From: a virus
Taxonomy: Duplodnaviria; Caudoviricetes
IMG/VR virus record: IMGVR_UViG_3300021426_003004
Location: 6,973 to 70,972 of that record
DNA length: 64,000 bases
Strand: one strand, 5' to 3'
Under the pieces are notes generated by a model, which was not told where the DNA came from, made no database searches, and saw nothing but the letters and a program-made list of their open reading frames with translations. Shown here piece after piece: positions 6,911 through 35,752 of the stretch. The translations under genes were made by a program, and so were the position numbers. Numbering within the stretch: position 1 is the first letter of the stretch; each line of letters starts with the position of its first letter.

Positions 6911-7372
6911 ATGCGTGATTTTTCGATTGACCTGATCTGGGCAAAGATTCAGGTGGCCATCACCGCTGTGGGCGGATGGATTGGCTGGTTTCTGGGAGGT
7001 GTGGACGGTATGCTGATTGCCCTGATTGTGCTCATGGCGCTGGATTATCTCTCTGGCGTTATGTGCGCCATCGCGGATAAGAAGCTGTCCAGCGCCGTTG
7101 GCTTCAAAGGCATCTGCAAAAAGGTGCTGATCCTGATGCTGGTCGGAGTGGCCAACATCATCGACGTACACGTGGTCGGAACCGGGGCTGTCCTGCGGGG
7201 AGCCGTCATCTGCTTTTACCTGAGCAATGAAGGCCTGAGCCTGCTGGAGAACGCTGCCTACCTGGGACTGCCTATCCCTGACAAGCTCCGGGAGATCCTT
7301 GCCCAGCTGCACGAACGTTCCAAGAAGGAAGCCGAGCCGACCGATAAGGGCGAAGGTGATCAGGATGCTTGA
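6911..7372 (+). CDS. Phage holin (toxin secretion/phage lysis holin family)
   Basis: MRDFSIDLIWAKIQ..DYLSGV..KKLSSAVGFKGICKK..FYLSNEGLSLLENAAYLGLPIP; TM helices; start chosen at ATG 6911 after RBS. Confidence 0.9.
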   Translation: MRDFSIDLIWAKIQVAITAVGGWIGWFLGGVDGMLIALIVLMALDYLSGVMCAIADKKLSSAVGFKGICKKVLILMLVGVANIIDVHVVGTGAVLRGAVICFYLSNEGLSLLENAAYLGLPIPDKLREILAQLHERSKKEAEPTDKGEGDQDA

Positions 7373-25026: not shown

Positions 25027-25448
25027 TGCACCCCATACGGTCACACGATGCACCCCACTCAGTAGGTCTTGCACCTATTTGCACCCCAGAAAGGCGAGTG
25101 GGGTGCATCGTTTACTTGTATCGACCGTGCCATTCCCGGGTTCCTAAACATGGAGAAATTGATACAATGCAAAAACGGCCCGGAGCCTTTGAAATCAAAA
25201 GGTCTGCGGGATTCGAGTCCGTCCTCGGCTGTAATTTTGATTGTCGAAAAGGGCTGTATTTCATGGAGATCTAGGCAAATGGGTGCATACCAGCACACGA
25301 AGCCAAACGGTCACACGATACCGGAAATGAATCGTGTGACCGTACAGTGGGAACGTGTGATAGTTTGCCGGGAATCGTGTGACAGTAGGGTGCTTCAATC
25401 GAAGCGGCCTTTTTTCGGCCCTTTTTGGCCCGACGTGCCGCTTGCACC
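25027..25448. repeat. Repeat-rich non-coding junction (TGCACC iterons, ACGGTCACACGAT direct/inverted repeats), candidate att/crr region
   Basis: TGCACC at 25027, 25049, 25070, 25080, 25443; GGTGCA at 25102, 25282; ACGGTCACACGAT at 25037 and 25307, inverted at 25331, partial inverted at 25374. Confidence 0.75.
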
Positions 25449-25524: not shown

Positions 25525-26193
25525 TTATTTTCCAAGCCTGTGCCGGAGATCGTTGAGAGGCTCTCCCTTGTACGTGAAGAACTTCGGTCCGGCAATTGAA
25601 TACTTTTTCCCTGAGAGCATTTTTGCAAGAGCAGTGAGAGACAGGGTTTCACCGTTATAAGAAACCCTGCGATCATCAACTACTGTCGCTTTTAGTTCAG
25701 TGTTGCTGATGAAAGCGATTTCTTCACCGGGCAGGATGCCGCACTCGCCGAACGAGAAGTTGGATAGACGTTCGGAAGATTCAGTGTCTATCTCCTTCGC
25801 TGTTTCCTCTGCTTTTTTGTCTGCTTCAGTTGGAGTAGCCAACTTCAGTTTATCCGCGCACCCATGGATCTCGGCTATTGCTTCCAGAATGGAATAAGCA
25901 TCCTCTGGAGACATAGCATAGAATTCTCTCACACGCTGTTTGCCGTTGAAACTCTCAATGGATCGAAGGTTGGGATTTAACTTGTCAATGATACTGTGGA
26001 TCTTCAAATCGGACAGTCGTGAGCTGACTTCGTAGGTTGCATAGACCCGGAAGGCAAAAGGAATGCATTCGCTGCGGTTTAATTGATGAAGACGATGATC
26101 CATATTGTCAGCATAGCCGATTTTCACATAGTCAGGGAAGGATGGATTGGTCAGAATATAGATGACGCCTTTACATTCATCATTCTTGTCCAT
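25525..26193 (-). CDS. GIY-YIG (T5orf172-like) nuclease with C-terminal RAMA-like domain
   Basis: GVIYILTNPSFPDYVKIG..R..L..EFY; C-terminal GEEIAF..ATV..VSYNGETLSLTALA..GPKFFTYKG. Confidence 0.8.
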   Translation of the reverse strand: MDKNDECKGVIYILTNPSFPDYVKIGYADNMDHRLHQLNRSECIPFAFRVYATYEVSSRLSDLKIHSIIDKLNPNLRSIESFNGKQRVREFYAMSPEDAYSILEAIAEIHGCADKLKLATPTEADKKAEETAKEIDTESSERLSNFSFGECGILPGEEIAFISNTELKATVVDDRRVSYNGETLSLTALAKMLSGKKYSIAGPKFFTYKGEPLNDLRHRLGK

Positions 26194-30914: not shown

Positions 30915-32704
30915 TAGGCATTTCCTCCAAAGAGACGATTTAATGAATCTAACAGAGCTTTTTCTCTACTTATAATCCTGGAGGTAATAGATTCAACATC
31001 TTCAAGTTCTTGATATTCGTAGAAAATTCTTGTAAAAGGTATTTCGTATCCTTCTTTTGTTTTTGTTTTATCAACCCAAGCTTCAGGATTGTATGGCTTA
31101 ATTTCTCTTTCGAAATATTCATCTAGATCATCATCGAGAGGAACATTTTCAGTGCTTCGTTTTGAAGCATCAGGCACGGGTTGTCCTTTTTTCAGAACTT
31201 TTTTTCCATCTTCGTCTTTTAACGGCGTTTCTATTGTTATTTTTGAATACCCCAGTGAATAGCTGTCAAGAAGCCTTGCCTTTACACATACTTTATTTCC
31301 GCTTTCAGTAGTGCCGTTATACTCCTTGCTACAATATTCACCGTATGCTTTAACTATTAGTTCTCTACATTTATCGGAAATCTTTACTCGTTTATTTCCT
31401 ATATTTTTTCTTAGTGTTTCACTACAACTGCTGGCATCGATCAACAAAACCTTGCCAGGAGAACGAGTGGGCTTACTCTTATCAACAATCCAGATATATG
31501 TTGCAATGGCTGTATTGTAGAAACTGTCGTTCGGGAGCTGAACTATTGCATCAAGCCAATCACGCTCAATGATGTATTTCCTTATTTCACTTTGACCACT
31601 GCCTGCGTCACCAGAGAACAATGAAGATCCATTTTGAATAATTGCCATCTTGCCTGATTGCGACTTGAGTTTAGCAATGCCATTTAGCAGGAAGAGCATC
31701 TGCCCATCACTCTTTGGCGGAAGGCCGGGCTCAAATCTACCTTCGGGGCCTTTTTTATACTCGCTTTCAACTTCTTCCGCTTCTCTTTTCCAATCAATAC
31801 CGAATGGCGGATTGCTAATAACATAATCGAACTGATAGCCTTTAAACTGATCAGCAGAAAGGGTGTCTCCAAATTTCATGTTATCAGGATCACCACCATG
31901 GATCATAGTATCTGCAACAGCGATGCCCATGGTAAAAGGATTGATTTCTTGACCAAAGGTTTGAACATCAGCATTTTCATCTAGTAGACGTAGACGTTCC
32001 TCCATACAGGTGAGCATCTGACTGGTACCCATCGTCATATCATAGACGGTGCAATGGATGCCTTCTCCTTTGTCTTCCATGCCTCCGTTAGTCAGAAGGA
32101 GATCGCACATCAAATATATAATATCGCGGCTGGTAAAATGAGCTCCTGCTTCTTCGTTATATGATTCAGAAAAACGCTGAACCAGATTTTCAAAAATGTA
32201 TCCCATATCCACAGTGGAGATTCTATCGGGCCCCATGTTCAGATTCTCCGCACAGAAGTCTACAATTACCTGATAAAGGCATCCAGCTTCTACCATGCGA
32301 TCAATCTGCTGATAAAAATTCATCCGGGATAGGATTTGTTGAACGTTCTGGGAAAAGCCTGCCAAATAATCGCGGAAATTGTCCTCAATGTTCTCGGGGT
32401 CAGACAGAAGGGTCGGGAAAGTAAACTTACTGGTATTGTAGAACTGATAACCAGCAGCTTCCTTCAAGAATCCATCTTTTAGATCGCCGAACCCCTTATA
32501 TTTTTCATTGGCGGTGAGAATGGCTTCATGCTTAGGGAGCAGACAGTCGTGAAACCGCTTAATAACGCACATGGGCAGAATGACCAGACCGTATTCATGC
32601 GGTTTAAATGCTCCAAAAAGAGAGTTTGCAGCATTCCAGATTAGATTTGCGTTTTCTTGGGCGCGAAGCCCGACCTCGTTGATTCTTTCTTCACTGGTTG
32701 ACAT
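30914..32704 (-). CDS. hsdM: Type I R-M N6-adenine methyltransferase subunit
   Basis: YDMTMGT motif I variant, SNPPFG motif IV, GAHFTSRDII; start at ATG 32704 behind GGAGGAG. Confidence 0.95.
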   Translation of the reverse strand: MSTSEERINEVGLRAQENANLIWNAANSLFGAFKPHEYGLVILPMCVIKRFHDCLLPKHEAILTANEKYKGFGDLKDGFLKEAAGYQFYNTSKFTFPTLLSDPENIEDNFRDYLAGFSQNVQQILSRMNFYQQIDRMVEAGCLYQVIVDFCAENLNMGPDRISTVDMGYIFENLVQRFSESYNEEAGAHFTSRDIIYLMCDLLLTNGGMEDKGEGIHCTVYDMTMGTSQMLTCMEERLRLLDENADVQTFGQEINPFTMGIAVADTMIHGGDPDNMKFGDTLSADQFKGYQFDYVISNPPFGIDWKREAEEVESEYKKGPEGRFEPGLPPKSDGQMLFLLNGIAKLKSQSGKMAIIQNGSSLFSGDAGSGQSEIRKYIIERDWLDAIVQLPNDSFYNTAIATYIWIVDKSKPTRSPGKVLLIDASSCSETLRKNIGNKRVKISDKCRELIVKAYGEYCSKEYNGTTESGNKVCVKARLLDSYSLGYSKITIETPLKDEDGKKVLKKGQPVPDASKRSTENVPLDDDLDEYFEREIKPYNPEAWVDKTKTKEGYEIPFTRIFYEYQELEDVESITSRIISREKALLDSLNRLFGGNA

Positions 32705-34070
32705 TTCTGTGTCTCCTCCTATTATATGTTCTCGGTTTGATGTTGTGCAGGACGGCGAGATTTTCATTAACCTGCCTTAAACTAATGTTCTCCATCAGTT
32801 TCTCACCGTCATCTTGTTCCTGATCAAAATTGGCGAACAGTATACGTGCTCGCAACACTTCTGGTTGTGATCCGTCAAAAGTCTCGATCAGCTGGTTGAA
32901 AGCCCCAACCTCTTGATATAGGGATGATGGCAACTCATCCTGATGAAGTCTTCCGGCGACAAGGTAGTCTTTGAAATAGAGAACACACTCTTCTGTAGGC
33001 CTCAATATTTTTTCGCTTTCCGCAGGGATTAGCTGTGCCCAATTGAACAAGTCGGAGTAGTCCCAATCCCGGTCAATCAGGTATCCCAGAGACTGAACAT
33101 GATCAAATGCGTCCTGTAATGGTTGCCGTTTCCGAAGGAAGGAATCAACCCACTGCTTGTCACGTTCTGCGGCAGGGAAAGCTATAGGTGCTTGATGCAG
33201 CATCTTTCTCTCCCGGCTTGTCAGATTGTGATAGTTTGTCGTTATGAAGTCGCGGTAGTCAGTCAGTGCTGATTCGTATAAAAACCATCCAGGTACGTAT
33301 ACCTGCTTTTCCGGATAGTATGCCTTCAGTATTTCAGCGACTAACTGGCTACAGGAAATAACAAAAGAAGAAATTTTGTCTCGGTCATACTTCGATAAAG
33401 ATTCTACGATTGCGTCAGTCCCGACTTGCGCAACGACATCCAGGACCTTCGCTTCTGTGTTATCACAGTCAAGCAGGATAGTGAAAACCTGTTTTTGTGT
33501 ACTGGAAATGAAAATGCCGATGACGGACGGTGTGTGCAGAGTACCGTTGGATTCAATGTTATACTTCGCGTTCTTACTTTCATACCAGCTACGAAATGTA
33601 TTTCCCAGTGCCTGTGCTGTCACAGAAAACGGTATCCGTTCAGAAAGCCGACGATAAGACATATTCATGACCGATACAGCTACGGCATCATAGAACCGAT
33701 AGGTTCCTTTTGAGCTAGTATCAGCAAAGGTGATCGGCGGTGTGAATACATGCCTGCATTCCGGATTGGTGCAGCGGTACTTGCTGAATACGAAGGTTAG
33801 TTCGTCAAAGATATATTTCGCATCACCCAGAGGGATCGCATCATTATATATGTGCGTTTTTGATTCTTTGCGTTCGATATTCTTCTGATGACAGAGGGGG
33901 CACTCATTCGGTTCAACCGCCAGGCATGCAACAAAGTGGTTCTCGTCGCCGGTTCCGGATGCTACCCGCAGTTCGGGGAGACGAAGCTCCTGAGTGCGAG
34001 CGTCGTCAAACTGGTCAATCTTGCGCTTTCTACCCAACAGCCTCACCGCCTTTCCCTCTGCGGGGTGCAA
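32691..34070 (-). CDS. ISL3-family transposase homologue with Zn finger and HTH kept but DDE residues lost
   Basis: CPLC..C..C; IGIFI in place of IxxDE, VISC in place of xDM, YPEKQVYVPGWF in place of FPxAxIxxDxFH, terminal RARI; ORF unbroken; stop overlaps hsdM start. Confidence 0.7.
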   Translation of the reverse strand: MHPAEGKAVRLLGRKRKIDQFDDARTQELRLPELRVASGTGDENHFVACLAVEPNECPLCHQKNIERKESKTHIYNDAIPLGDAKYIFDELTFVFSKYRCTNPECRHVFTPPITFADTSSKGTYRFYDAVAVSVMNMSYRRLSERIPFSVTAQALGNTFRSWYESKNAKYNIESNGTLHTPSVIGIFISSTQKQVFTILLDCDNTEAKVLDVVAQVGTDAIVESLSKYDRDKISSFVISCSQLVAEILKAYYPEKQVYVPGWFLYESALTDYRDFITTNYHNLTSRERKMLHQAPIAFPAAERDKQWVDSFLRKRQPLQDAFDHVQSLGYLIDRDWDYSDLFNWAQLIPAESEKILRPTEECVLYFKDYLVAGRLHQDELPSSLYQEVGAFNQLIETFDGSQPEVLRARILFANFDQEQDDGEKLMENISLRQVNENLAVLHNIKPRTYNRRRHRNVNQ

Positions 34071-34087
34071 GTCTATCGTGTGATTGT

Positions 34088-34116
34088 AGTATACAGAAAA
34101 AAAGAGGGCCTGTCCA
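34088..34116 (-). promoter_or_regulatory. SigmaA-like promoter for the ISL3-like/hsdMS-X-R/GIY-YIG operon
   Basis: Minus strand TGGACA, 17-nt spacer, TATACT. Confidence 0.6.
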
Positions 34117-34288
34117 TCGTTTCCCCCTGCTTATTTTACAGATAACGCAAATTTGTTATTTTGTTTTTAATATCCCCCTACAATCTTTACAGATAATAAC
34201 AAGGTTAATCATAAACGCCGTGGTATAATATTAGTGTCGCAAGGTGATTATACCAAATTTATGGCGACGAAGAAAGGATTCAGAGCCT

Positions 34289-34492
34289 ATGAAAGAAAAC
34301 GATGTCCGTCCCACCACCTACAAGTGCCCGCTGGCAGACAAGTGCACACTGAAGAAGCACTGCCACATTCTGAAGACGGCGGCACCTCTGACAGAACCAG
34401 TTCCGGTCCTGTTCCTCTGTCCGGAGGCAGGAAAGGACGAGAACGGAAAGAAGCGTGAGAGGGTCATTGTAGTGGGCGGTAAGGCCGCCTGA
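34289..34492 (+). CDS. Small Cys/His-rich hypothetical protein
   Basis: MKENDVRPTTYKCPLADKCTLKKHCH..LCP; RBS AAAGGA. Confidence 0.5.
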   Translation: MKENDVRPTTYKCPLADKCTLKKHCHILKTAAPLTEPVPVLFLCPEAGKDENGKKRERVIVVGGKAA

Positions 34493-35062: not shown

Positions 35063-35752
35063 ATGAAAATTAACGAAAATTATATCGTATTCCCCGACGG
35101 AACAGATGAATCCGCAAACTTTCGCGGTGAAACTTTCACTACTGACAGCGGCGAAACCATGTATTTCGCACCGCTCAGAGTTCAGACAGACGATGACCTG
35201 AAGGCCTTCGGTGTTGGAAAGGAAGCCCGCTGGACGCTGCCTTTCGGAAAAAGCTCGGTGAAATACAAGGTTCTGTATTTCCTGACGCCGAGAGAGGAGC
35301 TGGCTGAGGAATTTTGGGAAAAAATCAACACCCAGCATTCGAAGGACAATCGGAAGCGCAGGTGTATGATTCCCGGAAAGCTGAAGCCGCTGATCGTTTG
35401 CCCGGACTGCAATTCATGTGCCCACTGTCCGTATCCGGAATACAGGGACAAGCACGAAGCCCGGGAGATCAGCTACAACGACAAGCTCAACGCCCAGAAG
35501 ATCACACCCAGAGAAAGCCCGGAAATCCGGAAGCTGGAACTGACGTGGATGATCCAAGGCGCTTGCCGGAAGATGGATGAGCAGAATCCGCTGTTTGCGA
35601 AGGCGATCATCCTGAAGGAGTACAACGGTTATACGGTTCCTGAAATTGCCCAGATGCTTCACTGCACCGAATACGACGTTCGGTATTACTTGCGTCGGGC
35701 GGTGGAAATCGGGAAAGAATTCAAGCGGGAGTACTACCGTCGGGACGATTAA
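35063..35752 (+). CDS. Sigma-70 region 4-like transcription factor with Cys4 motif
   Basis: RCMIPG..CPDCNSCAHC; C-terminal GYTVPEIAQMLHCTEYDVRYYLRRA HTH. Confidence 0.75.
   Translation: MKINENYIVFPDGTDESANFRGETFTTDSGETMYFAPLRVQTDDDLKAFGVGKEARWTLPFGKSSVKYKVLYFLTPREELAEEFWEKINTQHSKDNRKRRCMIPGKLKPLIVCPDCNSCAHCPYPEYRDKHEAREISYNDKLNAQKITPRESPEIRKLELTWMIQGACRKMDEQNPLFAKAIILKEYNGYTVPEIAQMLHCTEYDVRYYLRRAVEIGKEFKREYYRRDD

Follow-up and report, generated by a model that had tools for sequence, protein, structure and literature searches.

An ISL3-transposase descendant at the head of a mobile type I restriction-modification cassette and its possible role as operon controller

The C proteins of type II restriction-modification (R-M) systems, such as C.PvuII and C.AhdI, are dimers of ~80-100 amino acids (aa) per chain with an Xre-type helix-turn-helix (HTH); they bind inverted-repeat C-boxes and precede the endonuclease gene. 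Other defence operons are headed by WYL proteins, which are ligand-sensing repressors. Control of type I systems is usually thought to be post-translational, and we know of no dedicated transcription factor for them. DDE transposases that act as regulators are familiar from eukaryotes, with few documented cases in bacteria, and TldR proteins are nuclease-dead TnpB relatives (IS200/IS605, IS607) that serve as RNA-guided transcription repressors. Here we describe an ISL3-transposase-like gene that stands first in a type I R-M operon on a 64,000-nucleotide (nt) stretch of a Caudoviricetes genome (the window; positions 6,973 to 70,972 of the 70,972-base IMG/VR virus record IMGVR_UViG_3300021426_003004). 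The initial annotation had read it as an exapted transposase serving the R-M system as controller or accessory subunit, a view now supported by the loss of the catalytic triad, purifying selection, linkage to hsdM and the lack of insertion sequence (IS) ends. No example of such a pairing had been known to it, and our literature search, aimed at hsd genes paired with ISL3 and at type I operons that contain transposase-like genes, gave incidental co-mentions only. From sequence and predicted structure, we propose with a probability of roughly 0.5 that the protein is a transposase-derived, sequence-specific controller of the hsd operon.

The gene encodes a descendant of an ISL3-family DDE transposase that has kept the fold and the zinc-ribbon/HTH module. 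Against NCBIfam NF033550, the protein scored 30.2 bits (E 2.3e-7, residues 55-333), with a cut-off of 180 bits. The same model was matched by 35/35 full-length family members, and PF01610 by 24 of the 35. Relatives, too, scored under the cut-off, except the true transposase P0067 (290.8 bits). A hidden Markov model (HMM) built from six true ISL3 transposases (ISPpu12, ISKpn25, IS1165, IS1251, one from E. faecium, and P0067) aligned to residues 21-325. A Pfam scan of the protein returned no match, HTH_3 and Xre included, and PDB sequence searches with the single protein and with the family profile gave nothing useful. The AlphaFold2 model on the 35-sequence alignment had a predicted local distance difference test (pLDDT) score of 91.2 and a predicted template modelling (pTM) score of 0.86. 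In the model, a beta/zinc-ribbon domain is followed by a three-helix HTH, an RNase H-like core of five strands (residues 175-250) and a C-terminal part made up of helices. Its top PDB match was the transposase of ISCth4 (IS256 family; 6xg8), with Foldseek E 5.8e-8 and VIA Z 13.2 over 310 residues (root-mean-square deviation 4.8 Å, 11% identity), followed by Hermes, the P element transposase and retroviral integrase cores. An ESM Atlas feature search also reached ISL3-annotated clusters. Alignments, model and fold matches agree on the ISL3 order of zinc ribbon, HTH, RNase H-like core and helical tail; the end-to-end ISL3 architecture of the initial annotation was thereby recovered, and the LRARILF motif is present. 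The N-terminal part is the best conserved region of the family, with invariant C49, C52 and C92 in the zinc ribbon and R117 in the HTH.

The catalytic columns were assigned with MAFFT and with the HMM of the six true ISL3 transposases, and the two agreed. The first catalytic Asp (D1; GIDE in ISL3) corresponds to F179 (IGIFI) in the window protein, the second (D2; xMDM) to S231 (VISC), and the Asp of DxFH to P252 (VPGWF). The E column is ambiguous, as alignments differ in placing it on E377 or Q378, and among the relatives it is not conserved; the window protein has neither the N+3 nor the K/R+7 of the E helix. The claim that the acidic positions had been replaced thus stood for the first three motifs, and for the Glu it stays ambiguous. 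The HMM alignment that had been suggested as a check confirmed the loss of the triad: the D1 column was acidic in 6/6 true ISL3 transposases versus 0/35 family members, and the window protein has no complete D, D, E triad. With D1 gone family-wide, the protein is predicted to be no longer able to cut DNA. We must also note that Asp was kept at the second position by 28/35 members, despite the general loss of D1; Ser is found there in the clade of the window protein.

An exhaustive HMMER search of 1.84 billion representatives yielded a rare family, of 68 clusters at 50% identity, nearly all 430-460 aa long. The carriers are gut Clostridia and their phages, and the public name is "transposase" (Lachnospiraceae, Ruminococcus, Caudoviricetes). 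The reading frame is intact in all members. Among close relatives, the ratio of nonsynonymous (dN) to synonymous (dS) substitution rates (Nei-Gojobori) was 0.06-0.18 overall, compared to 0.055 for hsdM, and 0.03-0.30 in each of three regions of the gene, the dead core included; the homologues are under purifying selection, as expected for an exapted gene in the initial annotation. The virus record holds one copy, as does each of four genomes (G001, G002, G020 and G399), and the gene lies before hsdM wherever the locus is readable. In 399 species-representative Clostridia genomes, the family profile gave three strong single-copy matches of 307-374 bits; the next scores, at or below 142 bits, belonged to multi-copy true ISL3 elements.

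Also in line with the initial annotation, a search for inverted repeats around the gene and the operon found no credible terminal pair, whereas the same tool recovered the 30-nt GGCTCT-type pair around a true ISL3 element (L006), our positive control. A 27-nt, 70% inverted pair at 25079/34044, flanking the operon, was considered as IS ends and judged a chance match because it overlaps a terminator-like hairpin. Neither terminal repeats with a target duplication nor multiple copies at variable insertion sites were found. Since the gene is single-copy, has no IS ends and shows low dN/dS, it is selected for a function other than transposition. A functionless, decaying IS relic that lies upstream of hsdM by chance would share the lost catalytic residues and the weak score against the ISL3 model, but it is contradicted by the selection on the gene and by a position conserved down to 21% identity, as well as by the intact frame of every member and a fold predicted with high confidence. 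We give this explanation virtually no credence.

In a quick maximum-likelihood tree, the true transposases formed one supported clade, and the family fell outside it in several deep clades; a single origin of the family is compatible with this tree but not shown by it. Three rows labelled "ClosISL3" (L021, L027, L034), with branches >3.5, were ignored, as they are probably not the transposase open reading frame (ORF) of those loci. A tblastn search of GenBank phages and PLSDB plasmids found no relative, and none was found by a close-clade alignment search of IMG/VR.

On the minus strand of the window, the ISL3-like gene opens a tight co-oriented block in which hsdM, hsdS, a PUA-like gene, hsdR and a T5orf172/PDC-S57 gene follow (Table 1). 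HsdM, HsdS and HsdR are all encoded (Pfam, PADLOC), which makes this a type I R-M system. The ORF is open for 459 codons from TTG 34070, with no stop and no frameshift. The true start is probably GTG 34046 (451 aa, database form P0002) or TTG 34037, and the equivalent of the latter is called in three relatives (L049, L001 and L002). By direct reading of the sequence, the stop TGA (32693-32691) lies within hsdM, and the hsdM Shine-Dalgarno sequence AGGAGG sits in the codons AGG AGG AGA of the RRR tail. The intact 459-aa ORF of the initial annotation was thus confirmed, and its description of the 14-nt overlap with the hsdM start and ribosome-binding site was exact. The overlap is again exactly 14 nt in L009, L011 and L013, and ranges from 0 to 20 nt across the readable loci. 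A promoter-like site at 32749..32721, in the 3' end of the gene, was dismissed as an internal promoter for hsdM: with a -10 only 0-1 nt from the hsdM Shine-Dalgarno sequence, it would give a transcript that lacks the ribosome site.

Linkage to hsdM, another check suggested at the outset, proved invariable. The next gene is hsdM in 13/13 readable loci (the window, the P0004 contig, L001, L002, L009, L010, L011/L012, L013, L014, L047, L048, L049/L050 and L053), over a range of 95% down to 21% identity to the window protein, and hsdS and hsdR follow where the contig allows. A genome scan with the family recovered only 2 loci. The cassette was seen in a phage (the window), beside a relaxase gene (L013) and on chromosomal contigs of metagenome-assembled genomes of a Clostridia bacterium and Acetatifactor. 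The ISL3-like gene has a conserved place at the head of a mobile type I cassette, where it is translationally coupled to hsdM; the order is ISL3-like gene, hsdM, hsdS, optional small genes, hsdR. The cassette resides in gut Clostridia, in their plasmids or integrative and conjugative elements, and in their phages.

The only evident promoter of the operon carries paired repeats on the same face of the helix. The sigmaA-like promoter that had been noticed just upstream of the gene was found as TGGACA-17-TATACT and is conserved in relatives. In the window, the repeats have the form TGTAAA-N7-GGGGG, in two direct copies; the pattern TGTAAA-N5-9-GGGGG has only 2 matches in the 64 kb, both at this promoter, with 0.13 expected. 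Upstream of the gene, all loci examined carry a bipartite motif of ~20 bp in two direct copies, with GG(G/T)GG at its end. Across loci, the copies lie 39-42 or 50-52 bp apart, i.e., four or five helical turns. In an intergenic alignment of relatives with 48-88% protein identity, the invariant islands are both repeats, the -35 and -10 hexamers and a short ACGATA block, and the spacer between the repeats varies freely. Motif listing and tree together indicate that the repeat variant tracks the protein clade: GTAAA...GGGGG in the clade of the window, GTGTTAAG...GGGGG in L009, GTCCAA...GGTGG in L010, and TTTGGTGG(C/T)A in L047, L048 and L053. In L011, L013 and L014 the variant is GTAAAGCAAGTGGTGG, in several copies with degenerate (G/A)TGG cores. 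We also considered the motif as the recognition sequence of the R-M enzyme itself. This was rejected because loci with a common motif have HsdS only 26-30% identical.

The protein and its two sites might instead form one end of a non-autonomous element, in which case an active ISL3 transposase acting in trans would help to move or target the hsd cassette. The differing contexts of the cassette and the retained end-binding module are compatible with such a mobility remnant. The motif, however, occurs in direct orientation and on one side only; beyond hsdR it has no inverted counterpart, and terminal inverted repeats were not found. The family is single-copy, and the recombination observed is homologous mosaicism rather than transposition. 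We consider this reading very unlikely.

This mosaicism was seen between the window and its closest relatives. Over the stretch that begins with the divergent small ORF, takes in the repeats and reaches roughly codon 200, nucleotide identity to L052/L049 is 94-98%; it drops to 70-92% downstream of a sharp breakpoint at ~33450, inside the ISL3-like gene. Between the window and L049, dN was 0.022 for the ISL3-like gene and 0.12 for hsdM, and the L049 hsdM is as diverged from that of the window as is the L001 hsdM. The small ORF, the repeats and the DNA-binding domain were recombined as one block onto diverged downstream sequence; from the drop in identity at the breakpoint it follows that repeats and DNA-binding domain travel together. 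Over the same set of loci, HsdM is 64-83% and HsdR 58-85% identical, and the ISL3-like protein only 21-51%.

These figures bear on the alternative that the protein is an accessory subunit, which would use its RNase H-like and helical parts to join HsdM/HsdS/HsdR, or only HsdM. Such a subunit would alter the enzyme, e.g., in DNA recruitment, restriction gating or the sensing of anti-restriction proteins, and the promoter repeats would be the site of some other factor or reflect a side function. HsdM and HsdR are far more conserved than their supposed partner, with no co-evolving interface apparent, and the gene and hsdM have had separate histories. The conserved overlap of 11-20 nt with hsdM, with its translational coupling, speaks for a subunit, as do the invariable linkage (13/13 loci) and the purifying selection on the two thirds of the protein that do not bind DNA. 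Related hsd operons with HsdM 50-62% identical nevertheless exist without the gene, so the enzyme does not need the ISL3-like protein, and on balance we regard a subunit role as unlikely.

Six related operons without the gene, with HsdM 43-62% identical to that of the window, were searched for the paired repeats, which were absent from all six. The slot before hsdM is filled differently. In L056 (genome G155), whose HsdM is 62% identical to the window's, it holds a WYL-WCX regulator. Xre-type HTH genes, identified by DNA reading alone, occupy it in L057 (G002, divergent) and L061 (G127, after a DUF2326 gene). An ATPase_2/DUF234 protein with an Mrr-like end is found in L059 (G398), and AbiEii in L060 (G249). 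The last two are among the reasons to consider an independent defence or guard function, in which the catalytically dead protein would not regulate the operon and would act alongside the R-M system, as do other genes nested in type I operons, by sensing or binding phage proteins or incoming DNA such as phage or IS ends; the fast evolution of the protein relative to the hsd genes and the other accessory genes in the operon (PUA-like, T5orf172/PDC-S57) point the same way. The protein, however, has no effector domain, its sole enzymatic site is dead, it has no PADLOC match, and its co-occurrence with the promoter repeats would be left unexplained. We therefore rate this possibility as distinctly unlikely, lower than a subunit.

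For a controller, the zinc ribbon and HTH, i.e., the retained end-binding module, would bind both promoter repeats, much as a transposase binds its own terminal repeats and promoter. The bound protein would then set the transcription of the whole hsd operon and perhaps also of the divergent small gene. A controller is favoured over a subunit by the gene-specific, operator-like repeats and by the regulators found in the same slot of related operons, and we infer the former role on these grounds. The broader proposition, that the whole family, descended from DDE transposases, was recruited as the dedicated transcription controller of type I cassettes and would read paired operators by its former recognition of transposon ends, is given a chance slightly short of even. 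Across the loci examined, the proximal repeat borders on the core promoter or extends into it. For clades in which it overlaps the -10/-35 region, autorepression would be the likelier mode.

Several points weigh against a controller. The position of the proximal repeat differs between clades: in the window it is upstream of the -35, in L009 and L011 it covers part of the -35, and in L047, L048 and L053 it directly adjoins the -10. No uniform mode of control is therefore evident. The 280 residues of the RNase H-like core and helical part are not obviously needed by a pure regulator, yet they are under selection. One promoter for M, S and R gives by itself no delay of restriction, as classical controllers do. 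The repeats could be bound by another factor, such as the product of the sigma-like gene at 35063-35752, and the co-inheritance of repeats and gene could stem from common descent alone.

Table 1. Features of the ISL3-derived gene, its promoter region and the adjoining R-M cassette (window coordinates)
Feature	Position	Strand	Remarks
ISL3-transposase-derived gene, predicted catalytically dead	32691..34070	-	longest ORF 459 aa
N-terminal DNA-binding part, ~residues 1-170 of the 451-aa form	33537..34046	-	beta/zinc ribbon with C49, C52, C92, C97, then three-helix HTH
RNase H-like core, ~residues 172-272	33231..33533	-	F179, S231, P252 at the D, D and DxFH-D positions
All-helical C-terminal part	32694..33230	-	LRARILF motif, basic RRR tail
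Sigma-70-type promoter-like site, TGGACA-17-TATACT	34088..34116	-	both hexamers conserved in relatives at 48-51% protein identity
Proximal direct repeat, TGTAAAATAAGCAGGGGG	34123..34140	-	ends 6 nt before the -35
Distal direct repeat, TGTAAAGATTGTAGGGGG	34174..34191	-	51 bp upstream of the proximal copy
Overlap of ISL3-like gene and hsdM, 14 nt, translational coupling	32691..32704	-	
hsdM, 596 aa	30914..32704	-	ATG 32704; Pfam N6_Mtase/HsdM_N; PADLOC MTase_I 1.2e-211
hsdS, 426 aa	29634..30914	-	Pfam Methylase_S; PADLOC Specificity_I 4.4e-86
PUA-like accessory gene, 144 aa	29198..29632	-	between hsdS and hsdR
hsdR, 998 aa	26205..29201	-	Pfam HSDR_N/ResIII; PADLOC REase_I 1.9e-39
T5orf172/MUG113 gene	25525..26193	-	PADLOC candidate system PDC-S57 (E 2.3e-99); end of the co-oriented block
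Divergent Cys-rich ORF, 67 aa (CPLADKC...HCH...LFLCPE)	34289..34492	+	adjoins the ISL3-like gene in the close clade

The slot between hsdS and hsdR varies between loci. It holds the PUA-like gene in the window, PUA-like and DUF4357 genes in the P0004 contig, DUF4357 only in L001, and neither in L009, L013 and L014. The T5orf172/PDC-S57 gene starts 11 nt past hsdR in the window and also follows hsdR in the P0004 contig. On the other side of the promoter, the 67-aa Cys-rich ORF has counterparts with 59% identity in L001 and L002 and is also present in L049, L051, L052 and the P0004 contig; a Pfam scan of it returned no match. More distant loci have other small divergent ORFs, of 58-113 aa, in its place. 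Between this ORF and the distal repeat, at 34220-34258, we observed two face-to-face extended -10 elements (TGGTATAAT on each strand), of which the minus-strand one has its conservation limited to the closest relatives. Next to the cassette, at 35063-35752 on the plus strand, lies the gene for a 229-aa protein that matches sigma-70 region 4, and the P0004 contig has the same neighbour. In the metagenome contigs L011 and L012, several very large DUF4379 proteins and a DUF2130 protein are encoded beside the cassette, upstream.

If the protein is indeed a controller, it would be the first dedicated one described for type I systems, and a bacterial DDE transposase turned transcription factor. A built-in transcription factor would change the view of how type I systems become established on phages and plasmids that enter a naive cell. 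With a defined protein family and a defined DNA motif, the case offers a clean, testable example. The public name "transposase", in turn, mislabels a component of a defence operon and inflates the IS counts of gut Clostridia and their phages.

Compared to ISL3 transposases (NF033550; Pfam Zn_ribbon_ISL3, HTH_Tnp_ISL3, DDE_Tnp_ISL3), the protein has the same domain order, length (~420-460 aa) and fold, and its CxxC...CxxC zinc ribbon, HTH and C-terminal (L/F)RAR(I/M)L motif align with theirs. It differs in that D1 is missing family-wide and the gene has no terminal repeats, and in its single copy fixed before hsdM; the window protein also lacks D2, the DxFH Asp and the E-N-K helix motif. By score, triad, ends and copy number it fails as an ISL3 transposase. 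The ISCth4 transposase, which matches nearly the whole chain in structure, comes from another IS family and is catalytically active, its DDE site being complete. TldR provides a bacterial precedent, as a transposon-encoded nuclease that has given up catalysis and now controls genes in its neighbourhood; the ISL3-like protein, in contrast, derives from a DDE transposase and would read DNA through its protein domains.

With type II C proteins it has in common the place as first gene of the operon, the overlap with the next gene, two sites (putative operators) at its own promoter, and occurrence in mobile R-M systems. By fold, however, it is not a C protein: it is ~450 aa long (451 aa in the database form) with a transposase fold in place of a small Xre-type HTH, its repeats are direct, with a distance of four to five helical turns between them, and the gene that follows it, in a type I system, is hsdM. 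WYL regulators of the BrxR/CapW type occupy the same slot, directly before the first enzyme gene, as seen in L056, although their fold and origin are unrelated and the ISL3-like protein has no evident ligand-binding domain. By analogy, the ISL3-like protein would be the functional counterpart, in a type I cassette, of both the type II C proteins and the WYL (BrxR-like) regulators.

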